Made by a program: the position numbers and the translations under genes
Notes under the pieces: model-generated
The model's input: the letters and a program-made list of their open reading frames with translations, nothing else
Database searches by the model: none
What the model was told of the DNA's origin: nothing
Shown here: positions 18,273 through 55,695 of the stretch, piece after piece
Numbering within the stretch: position 1 is the first letter of the stretch
Layout: every line of letters begins with the position of its first letter
Origin: Candidatus Shapirobacteria bacterium
GTDB taxonomy: Bacteria; Patescibacteriota; Microgenomatia; UBA12405
Assembly (NCBI GenBank): GCA_030698565.1
Contig: JAUYJS010000008.1
Location: 86,513-150,512, forward strand
Direction of reading: 5' to 3'
DNA length: 64,000 nt

Positions 18273-18359
18273 TGCGGAGGAGGCGAGATTCGAACTCGCG
18301 AGTCCTTGTGAGACGCAGACTTTCCAGGTCTGTGCAATGAACCACTATGCGACTCCTCC
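18273..18359 (-). tRNA. tRNA-Ser(GGA)
   Basis: Cloverleaf with acceptor GGAGGAG/CUCCUCC, anticodon loop CUGGAAA, a long variable arm, and T-loop GUUCGAAUC. CCA is not encoded. Confidence 0.8.
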
Positions 18360-19021: not shown

Positions 19022-19080
19022 AAAATTTTAAATAATGAATCTCCGATTTTAACAGGTTTTGCCCGGTTTTTATATCTTTG

Positions 19081-19154
19081 TGTGTCCGAGAGGACTTGAA
19101 CCTCCAACATCTCCCTTCGGAGGGGAGTGCTCTATCCAATTGAGCCACGGACAC
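19081..19154 (-). tRNA. tRNA-Arg(CCG)
   Basis: Acceptor GUGUCCG/CGGACAC, anticodon loop CUCCGAA, T-loop UUCAAGU. The ORF 19070-19255 overlapping it is spurious. Confidence 0.8.
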
Positions 19155-23345: not shown

Positions 23346-23429
23346 AGAGGGAATAGATTAAATTCCAAAGATTAAAACAAAAAATCGGTTTTTAAAAAAT
23401 CGCCCGCTTTTGCAACGGTGCCGGTGCCG

Positions 23430-23514
23430 GAGGAGAGAGGGGGACTCGAACCCCCAAGCCCTTGCGGGCGGCAACTTTCGAGGTTGCTGCCTTACCAATT
23501 CGGCGCATCTCTCC
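23430..23514 (-). tRNA. tRNA-Ser(CGA)
   Basis: Acceptor GGAGAGA/UCUCUCC, anticodon loop CUCGAAA, long variable arm, T-loop GUUCGAGUC. Confidence 0.8.
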
Positions 23515-23528
23515 AGAAGGGAATAATG

Positions 23529-23602
23529 TGTACCCGAGAGGGATCGGACCTCCAACCTTTGGTTCCGCAAACCAATGCTCTATCCAATTGAGCTACGGGT
23601 AC
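23529..23602 (-). tRNA. tRNA-Arg, anticodon read as GCG, with a non-canonical T-loop
   Basis: Paralog of the Arg(CCG) tRNA at 19081. Anticodon loop UUGCGGA. T-loop UCCGAUC instead of UUCRANU. Confidence 0.65.
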
Positions 23603-23638: not shown

Positions 23639-24187
23639 CTATTTTTCTCTGTTTTCTAGGGGCAGTTTGCTAGTCACCCAATTCGTCAATTTATCGATAA
23701 AAGTGGGGGACGATTCAATCAAAGGAATTCTTTTGGCAACAATCTCTTTAATTTTTTCTTTATCTTCTGGATTAATTACCAAAGATATTTGTCGGGGAAA
23801 ATGTAAATTAGTTTCAATTTGCAAAGTTTCCGAACTTAATATTTGTTTAAACCAGAACCGGTACAAAAGAGACCATTCATATCGACCTTCACCAAAATAA
23901 ATACCTCGATTGGTAATTTTACTTTTGATATTTTCCGGGGGAACGGTATGGAGAACATAATATAAAAACATAGCAGCGACCAACGCCAAGATCAAATAAA
24001 ACTCTTTTATAAAAATCAAAATTACGGAAAATAAAACTAAAGTAGCGATGATCGTAATCCAAAAATCACGGTCTTTTTTTTGAAACGACCTTTCGGCTGC
24101 TTCCCATTCGAACAAAACTCTTTCCTCATTTGCATCAGGTGCTTTCTTAACTTCAACTTGAATTACTTTTTGTTGTTCTTCTGCCAT
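23639..24187 (-). CDS. Hypothetical membrane protein
   Basis: Two hydrophobic helices ('WITIIATLVLFSVILIFI', 'LILALVAAMFLYYVL'). Confidence 0.5.
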   Translation of the reverse strand: MAEEQQKVIQVEVKKAPDANEERVLFEWEAAERSFQKKDRDFWITIIATLVLFSVILIFIKEFYLILALVAAMFLYYVLHTVPPENIKSKITNRGIYFGEGRYEWSLLYRFWFKQILSSETLQIETNLHFPRQISLVINPEDKEKIKEIVAKRIPLIESSPTFIDKLTNWVTSKLPLENREK

Positions 24188-24239
24188 ATTTTATATTTAA
24201 GTCTACAAAATAATAATAAATCATTTAGTTAAAATTTGA

Positions 24240-24640
24240 TATACTTGAACGGAGTTCAAAGGGGACGTTTAAATTTGAGAAACAAATTTATTACGTTCCT
24301 TGATTTTCCTGAGACGTAAGAACATTTAATTGCTACGCAATTTTTACGTTCAACGTTTCTGTCGAGAAAATAAATTTCTCTCAGGAAGGGTGCGCCGAAT
24401 GGTAAGGCACAGGTTTGCTAAACCTGCGTCCCGCAAGGGGCATGGGGGTTCGACTCCCCCCTCTTCCGCCACGTAAATTTGCTACGCAAATTAACGTGGC
24501 TGGAACGTTAATTTTACGAAGTAAAATTTTACGTTCCGCTTTATTCACAAACTTACGTCTTGCCCTTTTTATTCAAACGCTGCTAGGAACGTAAGTTTTC
24601 TGAAAGAAAACTGTACGTTCCGCCTTCACTTCCTCCCAGT
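24240..24640. repeat. Cluster of ACGT-centred imperfect palindromes (TTACGTTCC / GGAACGTAA modules) on both sides of tRNA-Ser(GCU)
   Basis: Left of the tRNA: TTGAACGGAGTTCAA and ACGTTTAAATTTG-agaaa-CAAATTTATTACGT. Right of the tRNA: CGTAAATTTGCTACGCAAATTAACG, GGAACGTTAATTTTAC-gaag-GTAAAATTTTACGTTCC, and GGAACGTAAGTTTTCTGAAAGAAAACTGTACGTTCC. Confidence 0.6.
24384..24471 (+). tRNA. tRNA-Ser(GCU), with CCA encoded
   Basis: Acceptor GGAAGGG/CUCUUCC, anticodon loop UUGCUAA, long variable arm, T-loop GUUCGACUC, 3' GCCA. Confidence 0.85.
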
Positions 24641-24659
24641 TTCCTCTTATACTAATTGT

Positions 24660-24914
24660 ATGTTTTATTACATCTACATTTTACGGAGTCTAAAAAATAA
24701 CAGTTTATATATTGGCTACACGGCTGATTTAAAAAAAAGATTTTACCGACATAATGCCGGTTTAAACAAAGCCACTAAACCATTTATTCCTTATCAATTA
24801 ATCCATTACGAAGCCTTTTTAAATCGAGTTGATGCCAAAAGGCGAGAAGTTTATTTAAAGTCTGGCTGGGGAATAAAAAGCATTCACAAAATGCTTGAAA
24901 GATATTTTATATAA
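24660..24914 (+). CDS. GIY-YIG nuclease superfamily protein (COG2827-like)
   Basis: 'YIYILRSLKNNSLYIGYTADLKKRFYRHN' GIY-YIG motif. Confidence 0.75.
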   Translation: MFYYIYILRSLKNNSLYIGYTADLKKRFYRHNAGLNKATKPFIPYQLIHYEAFLNRVDAKRREVYLKSGWGIKSIHKMLERYFI

Positions 24915-33036: not shown

Positions 33037-33109
33037 GACCCGGTAGCCAAGCGGTTAGGCAGTGGTCTGCAAAACCATATAGATGGGTTCAACTCCCGTC
33101 CGGGTCTCA
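33037..33109 (+). tRNA. tRNA-Cys(GCA)
   Basis: Acceptor GACCCGG/CCGGGUC, anticodon loop CUGCAAA, T-loop UUCAACU. Confidence 0.85.
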
Positions 33110-54219: not shown

Positions 54220-55695
54220 ATGGTAAAGATTCTTAAGCATAAATATTGGCTAATTCCCTTAGTCTTCTTTTTTCTATTAAGATTACCTTCTTTATTCGAA
54301 CCTTATTGGTATGGCGATGAAGGTATTTATCTCACCTTGGGCCAGGGGATTAGAAAAGGACTAACACTTTATAGTCAAATTTATGACAACAAACCCCCTC
54401 TGCTTTATTATTTAGCCGCTTTTGGTCGTTCGGTCTTCGGTTTTAGATTATTGCTATTAATTTGGATGATTCCCACTATTTACGCCTTCTTTAAACTGGC
54501 CAATAAGTTTTTTTCCAAACATCTAAGCTATTTTGCTACCCTTATATTTTTATTTATCACATCAATTCCTCTTATTGAAGGCAATATTGCTAATGCTGAA
54601 ATATTTATGCTTTTACCCACTATTTTGGGTATATTTTATTTTTATAAAGCCACCACTGTCTGGCAATATTTTTTGGCGTCATTGTTTTTAGGAATCGCTT
54701 TTACTATTAAATTTCCAGTAATTTTTGAGTTTATTTTCATTATAGCCTTTCTTTTTTTGAAAAAATTTAATTTGTTTTCGGAGTTTTCACTTAAAAGATT
54801 GATTAAAGTTTTACCTTCTTTTTCACTTGATTTGTTTGTTATGTTGTCTGGGTTTATTCTACCTATTTTACTTTGGGCTGCCTATTTTGCGTCAAAATCA
54901 ACATTTTTACCATTTCTATCGGCTGCCTTATTGCGCAATTTTTCTTACGTATCTTCTTGGAGTACTGGCAACCAGCAAAGTTCATTCATGGCGGGTGGGT
55001 TAATGCTTCGTGGACTTTTATTTTTAGCCGCATTTATCAGTGTTTACTTTTTAGTATTAAAAAAATTAATAGATACAAAACTGGCTTTTCTTTTGTTTTG
55101 GTTTGCCACCTCCATTTTTGCTGCAACAATTTCCGGCCGGCCTTATCCTCATTATTTAATTCAAATTCTACCTCCGTTGTGCCTTTTATTACTTTATTTT
55201 TTTTCTCATAAAGAAAAATTTGTTGGTTTATCTATCGGTCTATCGTTATTTTTTCTCACTTTAACTATTGTTAGGCTTAACTTTTATTTTTACCCTGTTT
55301 TAGATTATTACACCAATTTTTATTCTTACGCTTTTCATCTTGATTCAAAAGATAAATATCTTGCCAGTTTTGGTTCGGATATAAACAACAGCTATAAATT
55401 AGCTCAATATATAAAAAATAATTCTTCACCGCAAGATAAAATATTTATTTGGAGTGACAACTCTAATATTTATGCTCTAAGTGATCGTTTACCAGCCAGT
55501 CGTTTTATTGTGGCTTACCATGTAATTGATTTTGGTTCATTTGAAGACACTGCCAATCAGCTTAAAGCCAATTTACCCAAATTTATTATCTACTCGTCAG
55601 TTAATCAGCCGTTTACCCAACTGGATAAATTTATTAACCATTATTATTTTATTAGTCAAGTTTACGATCAGACCATACTTTTTCAGTTAAGGTAA
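54220..55695 (+). CDS. Polytopic membrane glycosyltransferase (ArnT/PMT-like, GT39/83 type)
   Basis: More than 10 TM helices and an N-terminal 'YWYGDEGIYL' loop. Confidence 0.5.
   Translation: MVKILKHKYWLIPLVFFFLLRLPSLFEPYWYGDEGIYLTLGQGIRKGLTLYSQIYDNKPPLLYYLAAFGRSVFGFRLLLLIWMIPTIYAFFKLANKFFSKHLSYFATLIFLFITSIPLIEGNIANAEIFMLLPTILGIFYFYKATTVWQYFLASLFLGIAFTIKFPVIFEFIFIIAFLFLKKFNLFSEFSLKRLIKVLPSFSLDLFVMLSGFILPILLWAAYFASKSTFLPFLSAALLRNFSYVSSWSTGNQQSSFMAGGLMLRGLLFLAAFISVYFLVLKKLIDTKLAFLLFWFATSIFAATISGRPYPHYLIQILPPLCLLLLYFFSHKEKFVGLSIGLSLFFLTLTIVRLNFYFYPVLDYYTNFYSYAFHLDSKDKYLASFGSDINNSYKLAQYIKNNSSPQDKIFIWSDNSNIYALSDRLPASRFIVAYHVIDFGSFEDTANQLKANLPKFIIYSSVNQPFTQLDKFINHYYFISQVYDQTILFQLR

Follow-up and report, generated by a model that had tools for sequence, protein, structure and literature searches.

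Why one tRNA gene should stand in a dense array of related palindromes is the question raised by a 64,000-nt stretch of the genome of Candidatus Shapirobacteria bacterium (assembly GCA_030698565.1, contig JAUYJS010000008.1, positions 86,513 to 150,512; hereafter, the window). An original prediction, made from the letters of the window alone, had placed at least six related ACGT-core palindromes between positions 24240 and 24640, on both sides of the gene for tRNA-Ser(GCU) and immediately ahead of a gene for a GIY-YIG nuclease. Comparative analysis of this locus showed that the palindromes belong to a conserved, strand-symmetric double-hairpin repeat (hairpins A and B; together, the module) that sits on tRNA gene ends and turns over between genomes. 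A literature search found no description of the element, nor of a link between GIY-YIG nucleases and tRNA hairpins in bacteria of the Candidate Phyla Radiation (CPR), and this repeat of about 70 bp on CPR tRNA ends is apparently undescribed.

Clustering of palindromes around tRNA-Ser(GCU)

The array was found to be real. The window contains 54 ACGT sites, and 12 of these are inside the 400 bp from 24240 to 24640, which is about 36 times the window rate, while every other non-overlapping 400-bp bin holds two at most. All five TACGTTC sites of the window fall between 24292 and 24620, and six of the nine window matches to TTACGTTCC (at most one mismatch) are within the same 400 bp. The window-wide totals of the 7- to 9-mer motifs showed no excess over shuffle expectation, and the signal is therefore one of clustering and not of abundance.

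Repeat finding and folding identified five strong hairpins of one family and one decayed copy around tRNA-Ser(GCU), so that the kinship of the palindromes stood but their number was reduced to five clear members and a decayed one, not six equals. Folding energies of -52.6 kcal/mol (z = -6.3) for the trailer and -40.4 kcal/mol (z = -5.0) for the leader were unmatched by any of 200 dinucleotide shuffles. When folded as DNA, the bottom strand of the trailer reached z = -7.9. In a scan against Rfam 15, tRNA was the sole passing family and nothing relevant was found in 24100-24750 even at E ≤ 10. A self-cleaving ribozyme that releases the tRNA 3' end, or another known RNA family, was rejected on this ground.

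Avoidance of ACGT through restriction-modification was also considered and rejected, since the approximately four-fold depletion calculated from base composition vanished with a trinucleotide Markov expectation (54 observed, 59.9 expected).

Distribution of the module on tRNA ends

The repeat is dispersed in Microgenomates/Patescibacteria genomes. In a search of 1.02 Mb of collected locus sequence (individual loci carry L numbers) with a covariance model for hairpin B, the A-then-B pair was detected directly after other tRNAs as well. Modules were found after tRNA-Ser(CGA) in L130 and L123, the L123 copy being followed by a GIY-YIG gene, after remnants of tRNA 3' ends in L146 and L162, and between two tRNA-Ser genes in a Woesebacteria genome (L191). 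A pattern based on the junction between the two hairpins matched only true copies among the collected loci and at least 120 stretches of metagenome contigs. The same pattern gave 0 matches in the 2.9 million viral contigs of IMG/VR, where the looser pattern GGAACGTN{18,26}ACGTTCC gave single, evidently chance matches among the matches listed.

The copies analyzed comprised 138 raw matches, 131 of them non-redundant, among the matches listed (hereafter, the listed copies). More than half of the listed copies (75 of 131) start 0-2 nt past a tRNA 3' end, and the tRNAs that carry these 3' modules represent at least 24 anticodons and include those for Ser, Arg, Asp, Phe, Tyr, Leu, Val, Ala, Ile, Glu and Lys. 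Ten copies abut a tRNA 5' end on the opposite strand, and 12 are too near a contig edge to judge. Most of the other 34 stand behind another module, a T-loop-to-acceptor remnant or an acceptor-like end of the form CCGC/CCAC, and one of them is a low-complexity chance match. The tRNA-proximal hairpin is A in every listed copy, all 131 are non-coding, and another tRNA begins within 60 nt downstream in 31 of the 138 raw matches.

Modules behind T-arm-like ends in L198, L207, L237 and L251 were considered as candidates for modules after tmRNA genes and rejected, since ARAGORN found no tmRNA there; these ends resemble tRNA 3' ends and are remnants located about 120 nt downstream of an intact tRNA. 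In the same four loci and in L195, an insert of about 60-125 nt separates the intact tRNA (Asp, Glu or Ser) from the degenerate T-arm/acceptor remnant and its module, and ARAGORN detected neither a tmRNA nor a second tRNA in these inserts.

Structure and covariation of the module

The module measures 59-78 nt among the listed copies and typically about 65-75 bp. Hairpin A has an outer stem of 7 bp that begins at the discriminator base of the tRNA (N73) and pairs N73-C-N-N-C-G-T with A-C-G-N-N-G-N73'. Beyond a small internal loop, the inner stem is hypervariable and its loop usually has 3 nt. N73 is paired with its partner in 126 of the 131 listed copies (G-C in 83, A-T in 43). Positions 74-76 read CAA in 51, CCA in 39 and CAG in 36 listed copies. 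All of these trinucleotides pair with a matching 3' arm. The CCA that follows tRNA-Ser(GCU) is one common variant of the hairpin A stem; the earlier remark that this is the only one of the six tRNAs of the window to carry CCA was correct.

Among the five other window tRNAs (18274-18359, 19080-19154, 23429-23602 and 33037-33108), four have a C right after the discriminator (CAC, CAA, CAT and CAA) and no full CCA; tRNA-Ser(CGA) was not readable unambiguously. A conserved C74, the base that hairpin A of the module always pairs, may be general in the source genome.

Hairpins A and B are separated by a linker of one base in all 131 listed copies. Hairpin B has the clamp GRAACGT/ACGTTYC, an internal loop with T (or A) in its 5' strand and TT (or GT) in its 3' strand, and a hypervariable inner stem of its own. 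The inner stems average 8 bp in A and 6.8 bp in B, with 110 and 103 distinct sequences among the 131 listed copies. Hairpin B alone was 97.8% paired. In an alignment of 14 sequences, 95.8% of the cells pair and 18 of the 30 pairs have changes on both sides. None of 500 shuffles reached four of the five covariation measures and seven reached the fifth, which counts further pair types, while slid controls of the same alignment dropped to 32-45% paired.

The module is nearly the same on both strands. Hairpin A has the format of an inverted B, so that nearly the same pair of hairpins can form on either DNA strand; high scores on both strands were obtained with model R2. G.T pairs amount to about 1% and are alike on the two strands (41 vs 39), the sense strand is on average only 0.45 kcal/mol more stable, and 180 of 244 loops (74%) are triloops, mostly closed by C..G. 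The outer arms form terminal inverted repeats, xCAACGTAAT... / ...ATTACGTTYC.

The original prediction had favored multiple binding sites for a dimeric DNA-binding protein, that is, operator sites of a regulator of the tRNA and/or the GIY-YIG gene. Each module does offer four GNAACGT half-sites, and the A/B junction, AAACGTTGC-T-GGAACGTTT, is a 17- to 19-bp palindrome of fixed geometry with 1-nt spacing in every listed copy. However, the distance from ACGT to ACGT within one hairpin varies from 18 to 32 nt, and the intervening stretch is selected for self-complementarity and not for its sequence. Variable clamp spacing together with hypervariable but paired inner stems, in which compensatory changes are frequent, indicates that a hairpin is conserved and not a duplex site of fixed spacing. 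Furthermore, copies stand after tRNA genes and between co-transcribed tRNAs, not at promoters, and no linked regulator gene was found in the window or in the loci inspected. Operator sites are therefore a very unlikely explanation.

The sequence that follows hairpin B is N73-C-(C/A)-(A/T). Its first base equals N73 in 98% of the listed copies (50% expected) and the next base is C, and at positions 70, 71, 75 and 76 the flanks match no better than chance. The module is bracketed in this way by C-N73-C, although C72 and C74 hardly vary in any case and N73 has a pairing partner inside the element as well.

Stable hairpins straight after a tRNA gene, some with T-rich runs behind them (e.g., the spacers in L154, L138 and L150), could also serve the tRNA unit as intrinsic terminators or attenuators. 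No terminator was predicted at the array hairpins in a dedicated scan, and no U-tract follows hairpin B; the original prediction, too, had called such a density of dyads not terminator-like. Modules located 8-39 nt before the next tRNA leave no space for a new promoter, copies also occur in the leader before the tRNA, and clamps of specific sequence that persist across loci and phyla are not a property of terminators. The probability of this explanation is slight.

Gain, loss and copying of the module

A profile scan with one genome per species yielded 72 loci related through DUF5673, a membrane protein whose gene (23639-24187 on the minus strand) is divergent from tRNA-Ser(GCU) in the window. 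The gene order of the window is DUF5673 (-), tRNA-Ser(GCU) (+), the GIY-YIG gene (+) and a DNA-alkylation-repair gene. In 58 of the 72 related loci, tRNA-Ser(GCU) stands beside the DUF5673 gene as in the window. Among the 59 DUF5673-linked tRNA-Ser(GCU) loci, the module is present at four (the window, L138, L173 and L174), and only L138, L173 and L174 among the related loci have an orthologue of the GIY-YIG gene. In L145 and L166, tRNA-Ser(GCU) runs directly into the DNA-alkylation gene, and in other relatives unrelated conserved sequences are found downstream of it. The window locus is the most heavily loaded of the 59, with one intact module, a decayed tandem second module, two B-type hairpins in the leader, and the nuclease gene. 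Between the window and L138, L173 and L174, the DUF5673 protein is 52-63% identical, versus 80-84% for the nuclease.

A second site shows the same variability. The spacer between tRNA-Arg(GCG) and tRNA-Ser(CGA) contains a module in L130, L138, L150 and L154 and none in L162 or in the window, where the spacer is 13 nt long. Comparison of orthologous loci thus showed that the module is gained and lost between related genomes.

According to the original prediction, absence of the motifs from orthologous loci that keep the tRNA, without enrichment elsewhere, would point to chance symmetry in AT-rich intergenic DNA. The window is about 34% G+C and its 7- to 9-mer counts are not above the shuffled level, and the module is in fact absent from 55 of the 59 tRNA-Ser(GCU) loci. 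However, other genomes carry it in abundance at other tRNA loci, which excludes chance as the origin of the array. All window copies lie within 400 bp, the fold z-scores are -5 to -8, and the same architecture recurs at no fewer than 120 places elsewhere and at none in the viral contigs; the probability left for chance is negligible.

The -10 block AAATTTGATATACT of the tRNA unit is kept in most of the 58 related loci, usually 10-16 nt before the tRNA. In the window, 138 nt separate this box from the tRNA; in L171 and L174 the distances are 127 and 94 nt. Judging from the consensus, the leader hairpins of the window therefore lie inside the transcribed leader.

Copies at different tRNAs of the same contig are on average 86% identical, versus 71% between contigs (Mann-Whitney p = 5e-5), which is the opposite of what strictly orthologous inheritance predicts. 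Tandem modules were found in L201, L203 and L210 in addition to the window. These similarities showed that the module homogenises or copies within genomes.

Several other features of these loci were observed. Two conserved sequence classes of about 110 nt, neither of them in Rfam, follow tRNA-Ser(GCU) in most Shapirobacteria: class 1, AAGGGTCAAAGTTCTATGCGACCC...AACATTTTTCG.T.AAATAGCCTGTAAT, in L125, L131, L135, L136, L142, L151, L162, L176 and L182, and class 2, AAACTGCCTATCTTTCCATGTAATTT...CAGCCTGTAAT, in L123, L132, L140, L146, L150, L152 and L153. The sequence of about 110 nt also occurs beside tRNA-end remnants elsewhere, after modules in L162 (12200-12310) and L248, and in L132 it precedes the gene for a 440-aa membrane protein, of which it may be the promoter or 5' untranslated region. 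The DUF5673 protein has 46 invariant columns in an 18-sequence alignment and is syntenic with three tRNA genes across Shapirobacteria. In Roizmanbacteria, GCA_000990565.1 (L321) is without tRNA-Ser(GGA) and the 5' arm of hairpin A, both of which are present in the otherwise identical L322-L325 (about 1330-1440 in L322); this could be an artefact of assembly, or the sequence was deleted between short repeats, CGT(G)ATA/ACGTAA.

The GIY-YIG nuclease gene

The nuclease gene follows the array directly, as had been stated, and begins at 24660. Its 84-aa product matches Pfam PF01541 (E = 8e-15), with the UPF0213 proteins 1zg2 and 1ywl as its nearest solved relatives, and has approximately the size of a GIY-YIG catalytic domain without a separate DNA-binding domain. 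A GIY-YIG open reading frame (ORF) on the same strand follows 26 of the 121 modules that have enough downstream sequence among the matches listed. These module-linked ORFs form one subfamily (MFYY.Y.L...). The start was mapped in 24 of them, and for 20 of these the distance from hairpin B to the ATG is 5-53 nt. Members of the subfamily are 68-87% identical across six candidate phyla, named by their sources as Shapiro-, Collier-, Roizman-, Levy-, Moran- and Uhrbacteria, with the invariant catalytic-type residues Y4, Y6, Y17, G19, R27, H31, N32, E51 and N55.

The association was also seen from the side of the protein. All five close homologues in genome loci have a module and a tRNA upstream, and so have all five distinct loci that were fetched by protein identity alone (72-75% identical to the window protein; named by their sources as Roizmanbacteria, Moranbacteria and Patescibacteria group). 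The locus comparisons showed that the module is the obligatory upstream neighbour of this one GIY-YIG subfamily.

Filled and empty versions of the same site could be compared. L303 has the order tRNA-Arg, module, GIY-YIG gene and tRNA-Ser(CGA), while L130, L250 and L265 have 10-13 nt in place of the gene, and L217 has the order tRNA-Ser(GCU), module, GIY-YIG gene and tRNA-Ser(UGA), while L299 has the same order without the gene. These pairs indicate that hardly anything besides the ORF was inserted. In several loci part of the tRNA 3' end is repeated after the nuclease stop codon: about 30 nt, with a second module, in L200 and about 21 nt in L240. In L138 and L212 the repeated part is 'acatcccttcc(g/a)c', behind which comes the sequence found immediately downstream of tRNA-Ser(GCU) in genomes that lack the cassette.

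Because tRNA 3' ends are classical integration sites, the hairpins might also be attachment-site scars of integrase-driven islands; duplicated tRNA 3' fragments of 12-30 nt flank cassettes of module and nuclease gene, and the region downstream of tRNA-Ser(GCU) is variable between relatives. However, neither the window nor the inspected loci have an adjacent integrase gene, the inserted units measure only about 70 bp (module) or about 350 bp (module and 84-aa ORF), the duplicated tRNA piece ranges from 1-3 nt to 30 nt and is not a fixed core, and the viral contigs hold no module match. This origin is very unlikely.

More distant GIY-YIG subfamilies (40-46% identical) were observed 44-210 nt after tRNA genes without an A-B module, in L154, L171, L172, L128 and L163 (after tRNA-Ser(GCU)) and in L185, L193, L156, L165, L148 and L181. 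Some of these genes have another conserved upstream block, TTCGCAGGCCGAAGT..AACGTAGGCCTG ... CTTCGGCGGACAATGTCCGC, and each nuclease subfamily may have its own cognate element. Small ORFs beside modules in L264 (847-1326) and L248 (from about 2560 onward), with the sequences MRVNVYIDAANLYKAV... and MVNNYLFIDGSALL..., resemble NYN/LabA-type domains, a tentative label that we assigned by eye from the sequence; the L264 ORF lies between two near-identical modules. The tRNA flanks of these genomes may collect several kinds of small nuclease genes. A second GIY-YIG-like match in the window, at 55092-55241 on the minus strand, was rejected as spurious, being antisense within the gene for a 491-aa membrane protein.

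Origin and possible mobility of the module

The explanation we favor, with about an even chance of being correct, is that the palindromes represent a selfish palindromic element, similar to repetitive extragenic palindromes (REP) and miniature inverted-repeat transposable elements (MITE), that is partnered with a homing-type GIY-YIG nuclease. The module would be copied to tRNA ends through DNA breakage and repair. The most likely source of cuts in the hairpins or next to them is the GIY-YIG enzyme. Its own gene would thereby be homed into sites that bear modules, and the enzyme probably provokes breaks whose repair spreads modules to new tRNA ends, the T-loop-to-acceptor remnants resembling microhomology footprints of such repair. 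GIY-YIG homing enzymes make short staggered cuts, and by analogy a cut of this kind would be consistent with a bracket as short as C-N73-C. The module would share the transcript of the tRNA and be removed from it as part of the leader, trailer or spacer, which would leave the tRNA functional. The second suggestion of the original prediction, a degenerate mobile or recombination element that carries the tRNA, survives in part: gain and loss, the presence on many tRNA ends, and the insertion site of the nuclease gene agree with mobility, but the tRNA is not carried.

Several points weigh against a selfish element. Its mobility is deduced from comparative patterns, with no cleavage, excision or insertion event observed, and an 84-aa GIY-YIG domain has neither a DNA-binding domain nor a known transposase activity. 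No classical transposase or gene for a REP-associated tyrosine transposase (RAYT) was seen adjoining the modules inspected, whole genomes not having been searched. The module is present at one locus in 64 kb of the source genome. In addition, the ACGT clamps and, in hairpin A, the AA/A loop are set by the pattern used for the metagenome contigs and are conserved by construction, whereas the N73 pairing, positions 74-76, the inner stems, the one-base linker, the loop sizes and the C-N73-C bracket were not imposed by it. The listed copies are also phylogenetically non-independent.

The start of the stem at N73 and the strict covariation of the discriminator fit a selected pre-tRNA structure equally well, and this is the main rival. 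In that case, the module would be a functional RNA element, a structured 3' trailer or inter-tRNA spacer that stacks on the acceptor stem via the N73 pair and directs or protects processing (RNase III, Z or P, or exonuclease blocks), and it would form a stable 5' end of the nuclease mRNA where the ORF follows. The pairing of N73 in 126 of the 131 listed copies and the strong compensatory changes support such an element. So do the 31 of 138 raw matches that lie in short tRNA-tRNA spacers, with flanks of 8-39 nt and no room for a promoter, and are necessarily co-transcribed, as well as the leader copies, which lie downstream of the conserved -10 box and are predicted to be transcribed. The ATG of the nuclease, too, is often only 5-20 nt after hairpin B, which leaves no room for a promoter of its own.

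However, such an element would be dispensable, given its absence from 55 of 59 tRNA-Ser(GCU) loci and from the Arg-Ser spacer of the window. It occurs in inverted orientation at tRNA 5' ends and after tRNA remnants without a tRNA, and its paralogous copies are more alike within a contig than between contigs. The near absence of G.U pairs without strand bias and the dominance of triloops are both unusual for selected RNA helices. Furthermore, a stable helix that sequesters N73-C74 would be expected to hinder RNase Z rather than to help it. A pre-tRNA element therefore has a lower but appreciable probability.

A more specific form of the selfish element, which we regard as speculative and rather unlikely, is a new class of non-autonomous palindromic elements mobilised in trans by a minimal GIY-YIG nuclease. 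The nuclease would recognise extruded hairpin or cruciform DNA and not a long duplex sequence, and an internal 'guide' (G-N73') would choose tRNA ends by pairing with the target C-N73-C. A short staggered cut would leave the flanking C-N73-C repeat, and the module would be both the homing site and the hitch-hiker of the nuclease gene.

If the selfish element is real, it would represent a new branch that joins REP/MITE-like repeats to homing endonucleases, coupled to a very small nuclease across at least six candidate phyla, and it would provide a function for the orphan 'UPF0213-like' GIY-YIG proteins, which are widespread. Repeats and mobile DNA are usually said to be scarce in the tiny genomes of CPR/Patescibacteria. 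If instead the RNA explanation is right, the module would be a new conserved signal of pre-tRNA processing. It would be a structure that all CPR tRNA-processing pathways must cope with, and it is a sharp marker for the annotation of tRNA flanks and of assembly breakpoints in CPR metagenome bins.

Comparison with known systems

Among the closest parallels are the REP/REPIN-RAYT systems of Enterobacteria and Pseudomonas. These share with the module short, imperfect, non-coding palindromes, inverted-format doublets of hairpins, variable but paired stems, greater similarity of copies within a genome, and a minority of copies that flank a small enzyme gene thought to mobilise them. In contrast, the module has the feet N73-C-N-N-CGT and GRAACGT without a 5' GTAG, its only recurrently linked gene is a GIY-YIG nuclease and not a Y1 HUH (RAYT) transposase, and it sits at tRNA ends of CPR hosts with discriminator pairing, while REPs are generally extragenic.

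Bacterial MITEs (Correia of Neisseria, RUP of Streptococcus, Nezha of cyanobacteria) resemble the module in being foldable, non-coding and of about 70 bp, with terminal inverted repeats, an apparent very short flanking direct repeat, variable presence, and co-transcription with neighbours. They differ in that no parent insertion sequence (IS) or transposase was seen beside the inspected module copies (a genome-wide search was not made), that the flanking repeat C-N73-C is paired by an internal segment, unlike ordinary target-site duplications, and that the module has a strict target, tRNA ends.

SegB is listed as a phage homing endonuclease (PMC13096335). The phage T4 Seg family, including SegB of the T4 tRNA gene cluster, resembles the nuclease described here as a small GIY-YIG ORF between conserved genes with almost no extra sequence, and free-standing GIY-YIG homing genes likewise show filled and empty alleles, linkage to tRNAs, and a nuclease more conserved than its neighbours. 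However, the Seg and I-TevI enzymes carry a DNA-binding domain, and the 84-aa CPR nuclease does not. It is also chromosomal and always coupled to a hairpin module that spreads alone as well, unlike the T4 Seg family.

Single-strand transposons of the IS200/IS605 type and their hairpin-only derivatives, the palindrome-associated transposable elements (PATEs), have subterminal imperfect hairpins with bulged bases, as the module does. In IS608 the flanking bases are recognised by pairing with a short internal 'guide', which is a possible analogy for the covariation of N73 and N73'. In contrast to IS200/IS605, no TnpA or TnpB is found at the module, the module is strand-symmetric where the IS ends are strand-specific, and it has an apparent flanking repeat. 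Finally, a conserved palindrome closely follows about half of the tRNA genes of one archaeal genome and has been proposed as a 3'-maturation signal; it is a single short motif pair, with no variable-stem double hairpin, no nuclease link and no evidence of mobility.

Features of the window locus

Table 1. Features of the tRNA-Ser(GCU) locus and its palindromes in window coordinates.
Feature	Position	Strand	Evidence or remark
Extended -10 promoter box (TGATATACT) of the tRNA-Ser(GCU) unit	24237-24245	+	Predicted; consensus AAATTTGATATACT in related loci
Leader insertion (P1, P2, small hairpin)	about 24250-24380		About 125 nt inside the predicted transcribed leader
P1, B-type hairpin, GGGACGT-T-TAAATTTG agaaa CAAATTTA-TT-ACGTTCC	24262-24299	+	Fold; model R1
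P2, extended B-type, inverted, GAGACGT-AA-...-A-ACGTTTC, with nested GAAC..ACGTTC clamp	24312-24359	-	Fold
Small leader hairpin, GAGAAA ataaa TTTCTC	24364-24380	+	Fold; ends 3 nt before the tRNA
tRNA-Ser(GCU)	24384-24471 (ARAGORN); 24384-24468 up to G73 (Rfam RF00005)	+	52.1 bits (Rfam RF00005)
Hairpin A, module 1, GCCACGT-A-AATTTGC tac GCAAATT-A-ACGTGGC	24468-24500	+	Stem starts at G73 and includes 'CCA'
Hairpin B, module 1, GGAACGT-T-AATTTTAC gaa GTAAAATT-TT-ACGTTCC	24502-24537	+	61.4 bits; fold
GC, repeat of G73-C74 straight after hairpin B	24538-24539	+	
A', decayed second hairpin A	24551-24583	+	5' remnant TTACGT 24553-24558; 3' arm AAACGCTGC 24575-24583
Hairpin B' of tandem module 2	24586-24621	+	51.8 bits; fold; 78% identical to 24502-24542 (direct repeat)
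GC after hairpin B'	24622-24623	+	
Promoter-like TTCACT-17-TATACT	24625-24653		Predicted
84-aa GIY-YIG nuclease gene, catalytic domain only	24660-24914	+	Pfam PF01541; abuts the alkylation-repair gene

Module 1 (24468-24538) scored 76.1 bits under model R2. Its hairpin B is identical in all 36 bases to hairpin B of the metagenome locus L299, which has another gene context. The decayed module 2 gave a partial match to model R2 (24576-24622, 33.6 bits), a direct repeat with a period of 84 ties A' to module 1, and the A'/B' junction, AAACGCTGCTAGGAACGT, matches that between A and B in L138, L173 and L174.

In the leader, P1 scored 44.9 bits on the plus strand and 26.3 bits on the minus strand under model R1, and its arms, ACGTTTAAATT and AATTTATTACGT, recur unchanged in two hairpins B, those of L173 and L174, and in the L171 leader hairpin. 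An equivalent of P2 is found at the same place in L171 and a decayed one in L174, and the extended-B variant, with two ACGT per arm, occurs again in L203, L224, L231 and L304. The small leader hairpin has no ACGT clamps and is outside the family; L171 and L174 have hairpins of different sequence at this place.

One further repeat was observed in the surroundings of modules. With 0 matches in the window at up to two mismatches, the G+C-rich repeat GGCGGACAAAGTCCGCC (units GCTTCGCC/GGCGAAGC) follows tRNA/module regions in L299, L300, L318, L261, L268, L272 and other metagenome loci.

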